From IMG/VR virus record IMGVR_UViG_2534682139_000013: a stretch of DNA of 26,266 nucleotides; one strand, written 5' to 3'. A program made the position numbers. The DNA is from a virus. Taxonomy: Duplodnaviria; Heunggongvirae; Uroviricota; Caudoviricetes. The number at the start of each line of letters is the position of its first letter. The first letter of the stretch is position 1. Of the stretch, positions 1 to 6,000 are shown piece by piece.

Positions 1-3000
1 ACCTGCCATATCCGCCAGGTCTGCACGGAATTTATCAACCAGCGCACCAAACTGTGCTGCGTGATTTGCCGGCGTACCGCCAAAATCAAATTCCCCCTGC
101 ATCCACACCACGGCAAACAGCACATTTTTCGGATTCTTCTTCAGTGCTGCTTTTGTTCGACCGATAAGGTCCTTATACAGCGGCTTGTCCACACCCCAGC
201 GGGTTGAATTCTCCGAAGCACCACTCGCGTCACTGTATGTGCCATCAGCTCCGGTGGTGAACGCTGAACCACCACGACAGCACGGAACCAGCAGAATGCC
301 CGCATTCGCCGGTATAAACGGCAGCAGTTTTTTGGCGATATGCAGCCCCTGCCCCACGGTTCCGTACTGCCCCTTTGACAGGTCCGCTTTCGGATGGTTA
401 AGGCGGCTCATGTCCTGCACATCATGCAGACAATGGTCCGCCGGAATGATGTCGTTATATTTGCATGCTGCACCGCCCGGTGTCACCGTACTGCGGCGCG
501 CCAGCTGCTTAATACGCGGGTCCGGACGGTCATATGTCTCCGGCAGCGGAAGACCTTCACCATACGACATGCCATTTGACTGCCCTGCCAGAACCACAAC
601 AAAGTAATACTCCGGGTCGCTGGTGGCACTGACAGCCACCGCCTTACCCTCATTACCGGTCACCGCCACTGGTGTGGTGACATCACCTTCCGCCGCAATG
701 GCCTGCATCAGGGTATAAGGGGTTATGGCCACCGGACTACCAAACGGCTGCCAGCCCTCTTTCAGTTTGTGTGTCAGCTTTTCCGCAAGGTCTGACGGCG
801 ACGCCGCCCTGACAACATCATAATGTTTAAATGTCATTATTCCTCCCGGCCGGGATAGTGTATTAAATCAGATATGGAGTGGGCTGTAGTCCGGAAGCCT
901 GAATGACACACGGGGACTACAGCCCGAAATACGAAAAAGGCCGCGCAGTTGCGCAGCCTTATGAATCCTGGTTAAAATCCGCACGATAAAAATGACAATG
1001 CAAGTATCTCATGCTGTTGCCCGAACCCACTCGGGCTTTTTTTTGCATGTAAAAAGGCTCCTGCGATGAGGAGCCTGGATATATGCCTAATCTCTGTATA
1101 CAGCATGATGCCGGGTGCCTCCCGGTGAGTTCGGCCTGGTGCCACCAAACCCGCGTATTCTCGCTTACGATCATCAAAGAGATCATACCGTTCACCAGTC
1201 GCCCCTCCGCACAGGGGGATTCACCATGCAGAAATTTTCTAACACATCTATTATCAGACCGGCAACAACTGACTGAATTGAGATGTATTTAACATTTATG
1301 AATCTCCGCCTGCTATTTTCACTGAGCTATTCTGAGTCAACGAAAAATAACTTCGCTGAATCCCCCTCCATTATGACAGGCATTAGTTTTAATGGTTACA
1401 GTCATCCCCGTAATTTGCGCACTGAGAAGAAGAGACTGAAGATTCCATCTGTTGGTAAATAATTCTTTATCACCCACTTTAACTGTAAAGGTATCGTCAT
1501 CATTATATTTTGTATACTCCACCTTTCCAGTTACACAATCAGGCGTCGCCAGCGCACTTGCTGAAAAAAATGAAAGCGATGCAGCTATTAATAATGTTTT
1601 TTTCATTTTACCCCCTCAACTGCTAATAGTTCTGCGCATCAGAATTGCCCCCAGAGTGGATGAATCCCACAATATTTTATTGTGCGTAATCCCACGGACT
1701 CTTCCATCTGCCGGACACATAGAAGGAAACTCATCAGATGCCATTCTGGCAACTCGCGATGCATGATGATGACAATTCAGTATTAATGCCACGCTTCCCA
1801 GAATTGCATTAATGCTTCCAAAAGAAATTCTTCCTACACGAACAGAGTCTTGTCCATGATAGTCAGGCAGGACGCTACTCAACCTTCCCCAGTTCAATGT
1901 AAGATCAACATCTTCAGCAGTCATTACATAAGAACGCCCACTGAGATCATCCAGTGTTGTACGAAATCCCCTCTGTATTTGCCGAAAACGTAAAGCTTCA
2001 GCTGTCACAGTAACAAACCGTAACATCGCTCTTGCCACAGACTGCGTCAGTGAGGTTCCACTATGCGACATTAAATCCAGATAAGAAGTAGTCAACGAAT
2101 GGCGATTTATCTGCATCCCCGTACGACTGATCCCTGCAACACGCTGTAACGTGGTATAGCTACTGTCACCAGACAATGTAACCGCTGTTGTACCTGGAAA
2201 GGTAACATGTGAAAAATCAGCAAAGCGATAAAAAACATTATTTGTCCTGTTAACAAATCCTGTCACATATAAATTATTTCGTTCAACAATAAGCCGTAGA
2301 TTATTAAACCGCCCTTCCTCTGGATCTATCCCTCTGACATCAACTGCAAACAAATTATCCCCTGTGCCACTATCAATCATCAGTAAAGACGTACCTCCTG
2401 ATGAAATAGTCTGTAATGGAGTACCTATTGCAGAGCGAATGACATTCAGCGAATCTACATACGTCTTTGCAGTCGAGAAGTCTAAGGTAAATTCCTTCGC
2501 CACCACATTAACTGAAAAGATAACAAAGAAAAAAGTTAGCACTCTAAAAATAATTATTTTCATATTACACAATACTCCTTGAGCACCATACGATAACTAT
2601 ATTCTTGACATCCTCCACGCCCTGAAGGACGGCGTTTTACGGCGCACCGGATAAACGTAACAATAACGTAATGAAAATGATAATCATATTCAAAGAGAGC
2701 TGCAACCTTAACATATCTGGTCAGATCTCATGCGACTACTTGACGTACGTAGATAACAACATTTATTGATACACAGGATGTTACGGACATAAAAAAGCCA
2801 GCCACTGGGGGAGGCTGGCAAACTCGTAGAGCAAAATGCTGTTACGCAAACTTCGTTACAGGGTCATCCTGCAATACAAAAAATACACAATATTTAGAAA
2901 ACTAATAGTGCCATGTGCAATTTTTAAGATTTTGTTATTAATTGTGGTCGCACCTTCCTTTCTGTGTACTTTCCGTATAGCTCACAGGATTCTGGGTACA

Positions 3001-6000
3001 AAAAAACCCGCGCATCGGCGGGTTAAGCAGCGTGGCAATGTAACCACTCTTATCATGATATGCAGATTTTTACGATCGTAAACTATTTTTTCGCTGATAA
3101 AATACAGAGGTTCTCCCTCCCGGCAATTCACGCTCAACATACCGATCCATCTCAAGCCTCACTCCCAGCATCATCAGCATGCCTTCAACAATCCCCTCCG
3201 CTTTGTGAAGGCGTTTACCTATACAGGTGTCAGAGCACCCATGTTTCCGTGCCAGCGCCATGAACGTCTCCCCCAACACGTAATAATCAACCAGCAAGTC
3301 ATGCAGATCGCTGTTGTTCCTGTTAAGGCGAGCCATACACCCGCATATAATCATCGCGTCATCGTCACAACACTGTGGACGTGATTTTACTTTTTCGGGG
3401 ATCAGTCCCTTAAATCCGGCAGCAATGGGCGACCATGTAACATCCTCATGGTTATTTGCCGCCCATGCCCCCCAGCGCTCAAGAACCTGCCGGATATCAC
3501 GCATCAGTATCTTTACCCCATCCGCGATGAACCATAAGGACGCCATTGACGACGGCGTGCTTTTTCCCTTCTTTATCGCCAATGTATTTTCTGACTGTGG
3601 CACGATTGCAGTTCAGTATTCGGGCTACCTCGGTCTGATTTCCATATGCCTCAAGGAGCATGTCAGGAATGGTTTTTACTGTGAACGTCATGCGGCCTCA
3701 CTTCTGCTGTTTCGCAGGTCTTTAAGTTTCTGCTGATACTTCGCCTTGATCGCCCTGCATTCTTCGACAGTCCAGCGATGGCGGTTATGGTTCGATTCGA
3801 TTTCGTCTACTGCTTCCTGCCCGATGCGGTTAATCAGTTCGACGCGATACGGAACGAGATTTCCGCTTTTGTGCTGGTTGCACACCACGCATTGCTTGTG
3901 AATATTGCGTTCATCAAATCGGAGTTGAGGTGTCGCAGCAGTTGTCCGGTAATGTCCGGCATCCCACTGAGCAGACGTGAGCGTTCCGCACGAGATACAT
4001 GGTAAGTCGCGGTCTCTTTCTCTGATGAAGGCGTTTACGGCTTGTTGGGCTTGTTTAATCCAGTAACTGCGGGGCTTTAAGGCGAGTTTTCGAATCTTCA
4101 GTTTATCTTTCTGTTTCTGCTCCTCTCGTCGTCGTTTCTTCTCTGCTGCTTTTTCCGCTTTTTCGCGTTCTTTACTTCGTCGTTCGAGTGCTAATTGAGT
4201 TCCGTGTTCCGGGCAGCACCACCACTGATTTGAGAATGCCGGGTGAAACCATTCCTTGCATATTTTGCATTTCCTTCGCGCTGGTTTAGCCATTAAGCAG
4301 CCTCCCTTGTTACTTTCAGCATTCCGTTATCGAGCAGCTTTCTGGTCAGCCACTGTTGACCACGCCCGGTGATTTTTGTGGTGAACGATATCTGTATTCC
4401 GTGATTTGTATTGACCGCTGTTTCTTTCACTGTGAAATAGCCACGATCCATATATTCCTGCATTGGCACATTGCGCCGGGAGCCTGAAGCAATAAGGATT
4501 TTGTGATCGCGCATCCACGCAAACAGTTTGTTTGGACCAATACCAACAACCTTTGCAAAGTTTCCAATCAAAATTCCGCTGGCCTCGCCAACGCGATCGG
4601 CAAACTCAACTTTAGGTGCTGCGAGAGCAAGCTGTTTCTCCAGTTCAGCCTTCTGGTCTTCAAGGTCGGCCGCAAGGCGCAATGCCTCAGAAAAGGTTTG
4701 TGGTATTTTCGCGGTTGCCCCTTCGAGTTCTCGCCAGCGGTCAACAAGGCGAGCGGTGAATTCCGGCGACAACTGGGCAACGACAATAATGCTGTCGCGC
4801 TTACCTTGTTCGCCCTCAAAAACGTAAGCCTCTACGCCACGAAGTAATCCTAAGTTATTGATTTTTTCGAAAACCACCATTGGGGGATTTCGGATCACAC
4901 CTCGAACCGCCAGTCGTTCAATGGATTGTTTCACCTTGTCATGACGGCTTCCCACCAACTCAGCGATTTCAATGCTTGTCATTTTGATGGCATTGCTATT
5001 TATCAGCTCATTCATTGTCATGTCCTCTCACATTGAAAATTCAGCAATAAAAAACCCAGCCGAAGCTGGGTTTGTTAAGTTGTCAATTGTCAGTAGCGAT
5101 GCAGTGAAGGCGGCAACTCTTTGTTCTTAAGCCTTTCCCATGCCAGAAGGTTCGTCGGCCCGTCAGGCTCATAAATATCTATATCCCGCGTGTGATTAAT
5201 TAAAACGCCCCTCGCCCTCCCGATGATATACGAGAACTCATAGCCGTAGTCGTGGCATATGCCGGAATAGCCAGACTGAATCAGTTTTAATGCGGGATAC
5301 AACTCACGGAACAATGCCTGTGAGCGGTTGGCATAATCCCACAGCCATACAAGGCTGTCTGTTTCTTTTGCGGAAAGCCCGTTGAGCTTCTTCTCTTGTT
5401 TGCCAGTATTTTTCTCGCACTGGCTGAAATAGCAGTCTTCCAGTTTTTCTAACACATCCCACGCCTGATCAGTTTCGAGCATTTTTGCGTGACGGGCTGC
5501 GCCTCGTTCTGTCCAGAGTATGAGGGAGCGGGCTTTCGGGGAAATTTGTAACCCTCTTAAAGATGGTTGCAAATTTTGTGAGTTACTTAAAGTAACCCGC
5601 AAATTTTGTGAGTAGTTTAAAGCTACCCGCAATTCTTTAAGGTCATTACCAACAACTTTGAAAAAGTGTTTCCCTTCAACGAAGCGTACTTTGTTCTCAT
5701 GATGATTCTGGCGAATACGCACCGGCTCAGTGCCGTAAAGCTGCGCCAAAAGTTCGGTGGTAATAACAGGAATCTGGTTATGGGTGATCGGGGAGAGAGT
5801 TTCAACAGAAATTTGAGTTGTCATAATGACGCCCTCTGGTGGTTTCTTAATAACTCACCACCGACGACGCCAATCGTCTGGTGGTGAACTGTGCAGGGTT
5901 GGCGTAACCGGGAAACCGACCGGCGCGGATCTCTCCGCCCCCACACAGCCCACCATAATTCAGATGTGCGCGTGCATACGACAATAAAAAACACGCTCGC

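Follow-up and report, generated by a model that had tools for sequence, protein, structure and literature searches.

The region between Q and stx1 in an Stx1a phage

We analyzed the region between the late antiterminator gene and the Shiga toxin genes in a 26,266-nt stretch of Caudoviricetes DNA (IMG/VR record IMGVR_UViG_2534682139_000013), referred to below as the window. Positions 2500-3700 of the window were 100% identical to phage BP-4795 by sequence comparison, and the phage in the window is, judged from its sequence, an Stx1a phage. The features relevant to this work are all on the minus strand and are given here in the direction of transcription, with the evidence for each in parentheses.

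3070..3504, minus strand: late antiterminator gene Q, 144 amino acids, Q21 family (open reading frame; BP-4795 annotation; Pfam)
3069..3082, minus strand: 14-bp perfect palindrome TTTACGATCGTAAA, at -35 to -22 (read from the sequence)
3055..3082, minus strand: late promoter pR' (promoter scan; annotation of 933W, AF125520; consistent with the start mapped by dRNA-seq in Sakai)
3048 ± 1, minus strand: start (+1) of the pR' transcript (7 nt past the -10 hexamer; fits the published landmarks)
3025..3047, minus strand: leader from +2 to +24, GTGGTTACATTGCCACGCTGCTT (933W annotation; common to the relatives found through Q)
3000..3024, minus strand: hairpin 1, predicted promoter-proximal intrinsic terminator, +25 to +49 (terminator scan; folding; 933W annotation; relatives)
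2791..3048, minus strand: StxS_L, 258-nt constitutive transcript from pR', allele StxS1 (identity with prophage Sp15; Sy et al. 2020)
2873..2877, minus strand: RNase E motif GUAUU, cut between GU and AUU (sequence; published position +173)
2791..2819, minus strand: hairpin 2, intrinsic terminator matching the published tR', +230 to +258 (folding; Term-seq in Sakai; 933W annotation)
2673..2691, minus strand: Fur-box-like sequence GAATATGATTATCATTTTC in the stx1 promoter region (read from the sequence)
2563-1616, minus strand: stx1A (open reading frame; BP-4795 and Sakai annotations)
1606-1337, minus strand: stx1B (open reading frame; BP-4795 and Sakai annotations)

The first-pass annotation of this DNA had placed two minus-strand terminators, at 3001-3024 and 2791-2819, between the Q stop codon and the stx1 promoter region. 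Stems, T-runs and predicted folds confirmed both, and both are located between the stop codon (TAA, 3072-3070) and the Fur-box and stx1 promoter region (~2691-2650), which is downstream of the two hairpins. The genes guarded by both terminators are stx1AB (1337..2563, minus strand). The Fur-box-like sequence has 15/19 matches to the Fur consensus. The stx1 promoter, Pstx1, is repressed by Fur (PMC7547250). A tRNA scan was negative, so that tR' and the toxin genes are not separated by tRNA genes as they are in 933W. A search of 2791-3048 against Rfam returned no family, either at the gathering thresholds or at a permissive E-value.

The Q protein matched Pfam family PF06530 over its full length (E = 5e-52); this is the family of Q21 (PMC9388147). 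The sequence match to the Q21 structures 6P18 and 6JNX was weak (E = 6e-7), with ~32% identity to Q21 over 79 residues. An initial assumption that Q is of the phage 82 type was ruled out by the Pfam assignment together with PMC9388147, which place it in the Q21 family. As in a Q21-family cassette, the PF06530 protein is encoded directly upstream of the pR' leader.

The late promoter and the early leader

The first-pass annotation had left pR' unplaced. We located it at 3082-3055, with +1 at 3048 ± 1. The promoter scan identified a -35 hexamer TTTACG (3082-3077), a 16-nt spacer and a -10 hexamer TATCAT (3060-3055). The promoter overlaps the last codons and the stop codon of Q, and the distance from the stop codon to +1 is 22 nt. 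Both hairpins are downstream of this start, and therefore RNA polymerase initiating at pR' must pass both of them to reach stx1AB.

The palindrome TTTACGATCGTAAA may be a Q-binding element, a candidacy that we infer from its sequence. At this place, relatives with different types of Q have different palindromes (TTTACGTACGTAAA, GCGTACGC, GCGGTCCGC, TGTTATAACA and TGGAATTCCA). The TGAGCA direct repeat that forms the Q-binding element (QBE) of phage 21 was absent from this pR' region. Within the leader, the 'qut' site annotated in 933W corresponds to 3041-3034 (+8 to +15), and the best -10-like hexamer is TACATT (3042-3037, +7 to +12), in the place of which relatives have TACTTC or CACTTC. We presume that the leader from +2 to +24 contains a sigma-dependent pause, making it a candidate pause region. 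It was common to two relatives, L004 and L012, whose Q proteins are 80% and 48% identical to that in the window and which were retrieved through the Q protein and not through a DNA pattern.

Hairpin 2 coincides with the mapped 3' end of StxS

Hairpin 2 has a stem of seven pairs, six of them G-C (GCCAGCC, 2819-2813, pairing with GGCTGGC, 2803-2797), a loop of 9 nt and a run of six T (2796-2791). The fold has a predicted energy of -14.5 kcal/mol (z = -3.2 relative to shuffled sequences). It was missed by the terminator scan because the loop limit of the scan is 8 nt.

In E. coli Sakai, the start of the pR' transcript was determined by dRNA-seq and its 3' end by Term-seq, 258 nt downstream (Sy et al. 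2020, PMC7547250). From the end of Q up to and including hairpin 2, the window is 100% identical to Sakai prophage Sp15 and near-identical to Sp5. If +1 is set at 3048, U2876 of GUAUU (2877-2873) coincides with the published RNase E cut at +173, and T2791, the last T of the hairpin 2 run, with the published 3' end at +258; this match of start site and 3' end to the window rests on internal arithmetic (+173, +258) and not on a direct look-up of coordinates. The published Sakai coordinates differ from NC_002695.2 by ~135 nt (Sp15) and ~142 nt (Sp5). Taken at face value, they would give a start at 2913 and a 3' end at 2656, a placement with neither a terminator at the 3' end nor GUAUU at +173. 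We adopted the offset because all three published landmarks then fit, and we attribute the shift to the use of an older genome version. The locus thus has the properties of the StxS locus: 100% identity to StxS1 of Sp15, 258 nt from start to 3' end, and the cleavable GUAUU at +173. By sequence identity, then, hairpin 2 is the tR' described by Sy et al. and forms the 3' end of StxS.

Cleavage by RNase E at +173 frees a 3' fragment of ~74 nt, StxS_S, and StxS binds Hfq and regulates rpoS and stx1B, all published for the identical Sakai sequence (PMC7547250). The short pR' transcript anticipated by the first-pass annotation is present in the published Sakai dRNA-seq and Term-seq data, in which it ends at hairpin 2. 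At least one of the two hairpins is therefore a site of 3' ends in vivo.

Hairpin 1 is retained among relatives

Hairpin 1 also has a stem of seven pairs, five of them G-C (AACCCGC, 3024-3018, pairing with GCGGGTT, 3011-3005), with a loop of 6 nt and a run of seven T (3006-3000). It was listed by the terminator scan, folds at -11.5 kcal/mol (z = -2.5 relative to shuffled sequences), and starts 46 nt and ends 70 nt past the Q stop codon. In both hairpins a G+C-rich stem-loop directly abuts a U-tract, as in intrinsic terminators. A pattern scan found 13 terminator-like sites in 6 kb compared to 6.0 ± 3.2 expected, which leaves chance possible, and so we built the case on the promoter, the Term-seq data and the relatives. 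Both hairpins lie downstream of a promoter on the same strand that has been mapped in the identical Sakai sequence.

To collect relatives, we scanned viral contigs with a DNA pattern and obtained 120 loci with the leader, comprising 61 distinct leaders of which 50 were testable. This was far richer than a scan of genome contigs with the Q protein, which gave only six loci. The pattern ends at +13, upstream of hairpin 1; conservation of the leader itself in the 120 loci is partly built in by the search. A hairpin followed by a T-run was detected at the place of hairpin 1 (+39 to +66) in 35 of the 50 distinct leaders, compared to 0-8 of 50 for control windows of the same size at the same loci. 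In 13 of the 15 leaders without a hairpin call, a weakened or mutated version of this hairpin is still present; hairpin-weakening point mutations occur in some relatives, for example GCTGG in 14 loci. The divergent leaders L004, L023, L048, L076, L085 and L101 have unrelated stems at this place. We used presence or absence relative to control windows, and not covariation, because the main group of leaders has an invariant CCCGC/GCGGG core and the hairpins of the divergent leaders cannot be aligned. On this comparison, the structure of hairpin 1 appears to be kept despite changes in sequence.

The T-run starts at +45 to +47 in most leaders. In dozens of relatives inserted genes separate Q from the downstream leader by 1-2.8 kb, and even there the hairpin adjoins the pR' leader. 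In the relatives that are not Stx phages, the hairpin 1 element is the only terminator ahead of the next open reading frame, which encodes a holin (PF04971, PF05106 or PF16931). Hairpin 2 was confined to leaders of the Stx type and was always accompanied by hairpin 1. It is near-invariant, with one loop variant, and its conservation is therefore uninformative about its structure. The whole module was present in 291 phage records, all at ≥90% identity and 289 at ≥80% of the module length. The Q proteins of the 120 loci are 29-36% identical to Q21. Because none of them is a true Q21, we made the comparison with phage 21 from its own record.

Comparison with known systems

Sakai Sp15 and Sp5 have the same promoter, 258-nt transcript, RNase E site and terminator as the window (Sy, Lan & Tree 2020, PMC7547250), and the Sp15 locus shows no difference from it. 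Sy et al. name a single tR', hairpin 2, and the proximal hairpin is unmentioned in their text. The tandem arrangement was nonetheless already known, and its detection here is a rediscovery. The record of 933W (AF125520, Plunkett et al. 1999) aligns with this part of the window without gaps at 95.4% identity; it and the record of vB_EcoP_24B (HM208303) annotate pR', qut and two 'possible rho-independent terminators' at places corresponding to 3082-3055, 3041-3034, 3022-3000 and 2819-2791 of the window, the 28-bp promoter being entered in 933W as 'pR'; putative late promoter'. Both terminators thus appear in an annotation from 1999, with experimental mapping of the second following in 2020. The 933W module is followed by tRNA genes and stx2, with a third predicted terminator, whereas in the window the next elements are the Fur-regulated stx1 promoter and stx1AB.

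Phage 21 and the phage in the window encode Q proteins of the same Pfam family, and in both the promoter is immediately past Q. The phage 21 record gives a -35 element, QBE, -10 element, start site, pause element and a terminator from +3 to +50, the U-run of which (+42 to +48) ends at ~+48/+49; hairpin 1 occupies the corresponding place. From this position and from the relatives, hairpin 1 is the predicted tR' typical of Q21-family cassettes. The two phages differ in that phage 21 has the TGAGCA direct repeat as its QBE, and the window phage has a palindrome over the -35 hexamer and the adjoining spacer. They also differ downstream: in phage 21 a single terminator precedes tRNA genes and the holin gene, and in the window phage another terminator lies 209 nt beyond the first. 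By analogy, the mechanism of Q21, in which a ring of Q in the RNA exit channel prevents hairpin formation, would be expected here too. Lambda has a single leader terminator at ~+194. The logic of lambda pR'-6S RNA-tR' is the same, with a constitutive late promoter, a short leader RNA in lysogens and Q-dependent read-through, but lambda Q belongs to an unrelated family, PF03589 (PMC9388147).

A model for transcription through the leader

Our preferred reading is that the late leader of this Stx1a phage contains tandem intrinsic terminators that Q-modified polymerase reads through; we give this whole account, including the role of Q, a probability of about 0.78. Host RNA polymerase with sigma-70 would start constitutively at pR' (+1 = 3048). 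Hairpin 1 probably halts part of the polymerases after ~49 nt. Those that pass it would continue for another ~210 nt and stop at hairpin 2 (+258), giving StxS_L, which RNase E would trim to the Hfq-binding StxS as Sy et al. (2020) showed for the identical Sakai sequence. Upon prophage induction, Q would load onto polymerase paused within the first ~25 nt of the leader and, by analogy with Q21, would prevent both hairpins from forming by narrowing the RNA exit channel. Transcription by the modified polymerase would then run on into stx1AB and the lysis genes, as suggested by the family membership of Q and by published genetics of H-19B and 933W. Q-dependent read-through is said to have been reported for these two phages by Neely & Friedman in 1998 and by Wagner et al. 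in 2001. It is also stated in a review (PMC8065619).

The first-pass annotation had claimed that toxin expression from the phage promoter requires Q for read-through of both terminators. Both are indeed part of the pR' unit. However, the 258-nt StxS precursor, StxS_L, extends across hairpin 1 and is produced both in lysogens and from a pBR322 clone that has the native pR' promoter (PMC7547250), which means that polymerase gets past hairpin 1 in the absence of Q. The requirement for Q holds strictly for hairpin 2 only.

The same observations bear on the role of hairpin 1. Hairpin 2 could be the sole working terminator in Stx phages, with hairpin 1 a relic of an ancestral tR' that is at most a structural 5' element of StxS_L, affecting stability or contacts with RNase E or Hfq. 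In favor of this, StxS_L reaches across hairpin 1 and builds up in the absence of Q, a single tR' was described by Sy et al. (2020), RNase E crosslinks are found also in the 5' region of StxS (PMC7547250), and some relatives have the weakening mutations noted above (GCTGG, 14 loci). We nevertheless consider a relic unlikely. The Stx version of hairpin 1 has an intact stem with five G-C pairs and, at 7 U, the longest U-run among the leaders compared; it is present throughout the 291 phage records that match at ≥90% identity; and in relatives, as in phage 21, no other terminator precedes the holin gene. A leaky terminator at hairpin 1 suffices to explain StxS_L. A ~49-nt RNA would probably escape both standard RNA-seq and a 3' Northern probe, and thus its absence from Sy et al. 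is uninformative either way.

It is very improbable that the main role of hairpin 1 is to end the early rightward nin-Q transcript and so shield pR' and stx1 from read-in. Hairpin 1 is only 46-70 nt past the Q stop codon, and a terminator here necessarily acts also on unmodified polymerase arriving from upstream. Yet where Q is 1-2.8 kb away the hairpin stays behind the pR' leader and not behind Q, and keeps an almost constant spacing from the start site (T-run start at +45 to +47 in most leaders).

Least probable of all is a separate small-RNA gene, transcribed from a promoter of its own located between the hairpins and terminated by hairpin 2, which would make two transcription units: there is a weak promoter-like stretch at 2920-2891 (TTGCAC, 18 nt, TAAATA), but it has no T at the last -10 position and was unlisted by the promoter scan, the 5' end was recovered by RLM-RACE without pyrophosphatase treatment, and StxS_L accumulates when RNase E is inactivated (PMC7547250). 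On the same RLM-RACE, RNase E and promoter-scan evidence, we judged an internal promoter for the short form of StxS to be unlikely.

Implications for StxS and toxin regulation

Shiga toxin production is tied to prophage induction through the pR'-tR' leader, which acts as the switch and whose short transcript functions as a small RNA. The stretch between +50 and +258, which includes hairpin 2, appears to have been added as a module; relatives with the same leader run from hairpin 1 directly to the holin gene. A stronger proposal is that hairpin 1 is efficient and that regulated, Q-independent read-through sets the level of StxS, and with it activation of RpoS and repression of Stx1B in lysogens. 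Under this proposal the leader would act as a two-step gate, the first step dosing the host-directed small RNA StxS and the second by itself silencing the toxin and lysis genes until Q is supplied. We regard this as speculative and rather doubtful; if hairpin 1 is efficient, StxS dosage would depend on its leakiness, which would matter for work on StxS and on the mechanism of Q.

The value of the result is otherwise one of bookkeeping. The tR' of the recent literature would be the second of two terminators, the first being of the Q21-family type, and a BP-4795-type Stx1 phage has exactly the regulatory module of Sakai Sp15/Sp5 and 933W. The BP-4795 record itself is without regulatory annotation at the leader, and an antisense reading frame, ORF39, is entered there instead.

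The late promoter pR' and two hairpins between Q and stx1

A sequence search showed that positions 2500-3700 are 100% identical to the Stx1-converting phage BP-4795, and also to many Stx1a phages. The open reading frames, together with the BP-4795 annotation, gave the gene order ninG, ninH, Q, stx1A, stx1B on the minus strand, and the 507-nt gap from the Q stop codon to the stx1A start holds both hairpins. A promoter scan placed the phage late promoter, pR', with its -35 hexamer within the last Q codons and its -10 hexamer 10 nt past the Q stop codon.

Features of the Q-stx1 region (window coordinates)
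3504-3070, minus: Q, late antiterminator
3082-3055, minus: pR', -35 TTTACG, 16 nt, -10 TATCAT
3024-3000, minus: hairpin 1, stem AACCCGC/GCGGGTT (3024-3018 and 3011-3005), 6-nt loop, seven T (3006-3000)
2819-2791, minus: hairpin 2, stem GCCAGCC/GGCTGGC (2819-2813 and 2803-2797), 9-nt loop, six T (2796-2791)
2563-1616, minus: stx1A
1606-1337, minus: stx1B

The first-pass annotation had described two minus-strand terminators here, and both are present, as judged by their stems, T-runs and predicted folding (-11.5 kcal/mol, z = -2.5 for hairpin 1; -14.5 kcal/mol, z = -3.2 for hairpin 2). A terminator pattern scan found 13 sites in 6 kb compared to 6.0 ± 3.2 expected, which is weak evidence alone, so context, conservation and published mapping carry the case for termination.

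The start of the pR' transcript was determined in strain Sakai by dRNA-seq, with the Stx1 and Stx2a prophages alike, and Term-seq placed the leader RNA's 3' end 258 nt downstream of that start (Sy, Lan and Tree, PMC7547250). RNase E cuts the leader at +173, between GU and AUU of GUAUU (PMC7547250). The window and the Sakai Stx1 prophage Sp15 match at 100% identity all the way from the end of Q to the last base of hairpin 2, and the Stx2a prophage Sp5 is near-identical up to 12 nt beyond hairpin 2. We set +1 at A3048 (±1), 7 nt after the -10 hexamer. With this start, +173 is U2876 of GUAUU (2877-2873) and +258 is T2791, the final T of hairpin 2. Because the start, +173 and +258 all fit the window sequence, both hairpins belong to the pR' unit, hairpin 1 at +25 to +49 and hairpin 2 at +230 to +258. 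The absolute coordinates in PMC7547250 are offset by ~135-142 nt relative to NC_002695.2, which we attribute to an older genome version; taken literally, they would fall at places with no terminator or GUAUU, and we rejected that reading.

Hairpin 2, the published tR'

Hairpin 2 is the published leader terminator tR', and the small RNA StxS has its 3' end there. The 258-nt pR' transcript, StxS_L, is constitutive in lysogens. Trimming by RNase E leaves a stable 3' fragment, an Hfq-binding RNA with an activating effect on rpoS and a repressing one on stx1B (PMC7547250). The short pR' transcript that the first-pass annotation proposed to look for has already been reported in Sakai, where the sequence is identical, and it ends at hairpin 2 (PMC7547250). 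Rfam has no StxS model.

The BP-4795 record contains an 81-aa 'ORF39' at 2836-3081 on the plus strand, antisense to the pR' leader and StxS. This ORF had no match in Pfam and overlaps a mapped non-coding transcript; it is probably not a gene. Three differences from Sp15 lie between tR' and stx1A, two of them in notable places (minus-strand bases): G2685 (A in Sakai) is inside a Fur-box-like sequence, and C2619 (G in Sakai) completes a 5-bp stem, ACGCC/GGCGT (2635-2631 and 2621-2617), that is just upstream of stx1A and absent from Sakai.

Hairpin 1 and the leaders of related phages

Hairpin 1 is unmentioned in the text of PMC7547250. The window Q belongs to Pfam family PF06530, which is the family of the phage 21 Q protein, Q21 (PMC9388147), and it gave a weak match to Q21 structures. 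The curated phage 21 record has the same plan as the window (-35, Q-binding element, -10, start site, and a pause element at +2 to +8), with a terminator at +3 to +50 whose U-run is at +42 to +48.

We collected relatives by running a DNA pattern, which begins at the end of the -10 region and stops at +13, on viral contigs, and retrieved 120 contigs representing 61 distinct leaders. Because the pattern ends upstream of the hairpin, conservation of hairpin 1 was not built into the search. Fifty distinct leaders had enough flanking DNA to be scored for a hairpin of ≤ -6 kcal/mol with a T-run behind it that begins between +39 and +66. Such an element was found in 35 of the 50, compared to 0-8 of 50 in same-sized control windows from the same loci. 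Thirteen of the 15 remaining leaders keep the same hairpin in a weakened or mutated form: in most of these the stem is shortened to CCGC/GCGG or a point mutation has hit the 3' arm, and the rest are more diverged copies. Only two have no hairpin. Divergent leaders carry unrelated stems at the same place (e.g., CCCTGCC/GGCGGGG, CCTCGC/GCGGGG, AGCCTCGGC/GCCGGGGCT and CCTACC/GGTGGG). The same layout was present in two relatives found through the Q protein and not the DNA pattern (locus L004, Q 80% identical; locus L012, Q 48%). In non-Stx relatives, the hairpin 1 equivalent is the only terminator ahead of the first ORF, which encodes a holin (PF04971, P21 holin S; PF05106; or PF16931). Given the relatives' leaders and the phage 21 layout, we take hairpin 1 to correspond in position to the tR' typical of the Q21 family.

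Among the leaders compared, hairpin 2 occurred only in those of Stx type and always behind hairpin 1, which makes the segment from +50 to +258 look like an added module.

Q is 1-2.8 kb upstream in many loci, with other genes in between, and the hairpin keeps with the leader, not with the Q 3' end. A Q gene need not be next to the site where Q acts. This spacing was seen in many non-Stx relatives (L010, L011, L016, L017, L022 and others). In PhiR29_2, the ompD porin gene is just after Q on the opposite strand, and in Lambda_ev087 the blc lipocalin gene has that position and orientation. The L016 class (14 loci) is among the two most frequent classes of non-Stx leader. The stem of its proximal hairpin is weakened by a T in place of a G in the 3' arm, which turns GCGGG into GCTGG at about leader positions +38 to +42.

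A candidate Q-binding element and the action of Q

A perfect 14-bp palindrome, TTTACGATCGTAAA, at 3069-3082 on the minus strand (-35 to -22) overlaps both the pR' -35 hexamer and the Q stop codon. Across relatives (L004, L012, L016-L135), the palindrome varies in step with the type of Q: it is TTTACG(A/T)(T/A)CGTAAA where Q is at least 80% identical, TGTTATAACA at 58%, TGGAATTCCA at 48-51% (two loci), and GCGTACGC or GCGGTCCGC at ~45-49%. An A-run followed the palindrome in every case. TTTACGATCGTAAA may be the Q-binding element, although it is an inverted repeat and the phage 21 element is a direct repeat. The best -10-like hexamer for a pause element is the candidate TACATT at +7 to +12; the 'qut' annotated in phage 933W is at +8 to +15.

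In the aphid-symbiont phage APSE-2 (L014, 1900-1960), the Q gene ends with TTAGTGCGGTCCGCAAAAAGT, the same palindrome and A-run as in the E. coli prophage PPyecE_EH1910 (L012), and a toxin cassette follows Q. The conserved leader and proximal hairpin were not recognisable in APSE-2.

Initiation at pR' is constitutive, with termination at +258 and processing of the leader to StxS, in a sequence identical to that of the window; StxS_L is likewise produced from the native pR' cloned in pBR322 (PMC7547250). Because StxS_L spans hairpin 1 and is made from this clone as well, polymerase demonstrably passes hairpin 1 without Q, i.e., hairpin 1 is leaky. Hairpin 1 would halt a fraction of polymerases at ~+49. 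Q would bind near the promoter and load on polymerase during a pause within the first ~25 nt, and a Q ring in the RNA exit channel, as for Q21, would keep both hairpins from forming. Q-modified transcription could then reach stx1AB and the lysis genes. According to reviews, Q-modified polymerase reads through tR' into stx (PMC8065619). The proposal that the two terminators guard stx1 against polymerase without Q is supported by their location in the pR' unit and the published 3' end at hairpin 2, and it holds strictly for hairpin 2 only.

Tandem terminators in other Stx phage records

Tandem terminators upstream of stx1 are already known. Phage 933W (GenBank AF125520) gives a gapless alignment with this stretch of the window (95.4% identity), and its record annotates a putative pR' (3082-3055 on the window), qut (3041-3034) and two 'possible rho-independent terminators' (3022-3000 and 2819-2791), the second being exactly the range given for hairpin 2 in the first-pass annotation. 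The 24B record repeats this annotation. The module was found in 291 phage records, from Stx1 and Stx2 phages, all with at least 90% identity and 289 covering at least 80% of its length. In Stx phages, the name tR' is now used for the second of two terminators. We did not find this point, with a first terminator at the Q21-family position and leaky without Q, stated in the papers examined; it is a modest refinement, not a discovery.

Other elements in the window

Rfam searches identified STnc100 (1045-1258, minus) and the anti-GcvB small RNA AgvB (984-1043, plus; score just over threshold), both downstream of stx1B. PMC7547250 mentions EcOnc42, a small RNA located on the 3' side of the toxin genes. 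An RNA element matching the lambda cIII thermoregulator (Rfam) is at 17218-17276 on the plus strand, the strand to which it assigns cIII and the early left operon. The C4 antisense RNA, its a1/b1 target and isrK (5877-6075, minus) adjoin a 244-aa ORF (5090-5824), and we take this set to be a P1/P7-type immunity (antirepressor control) module in the nin region. The ALIL pseudoknot is the frameshift signal of IS3-family insertion sequences. Two copies (Rfam) are present on the plus strand, ~13.8 kb apart (10728-10844 and 24547-24662), and indicate that the prophage contains two insertion sequence copies, both oriented the same way.
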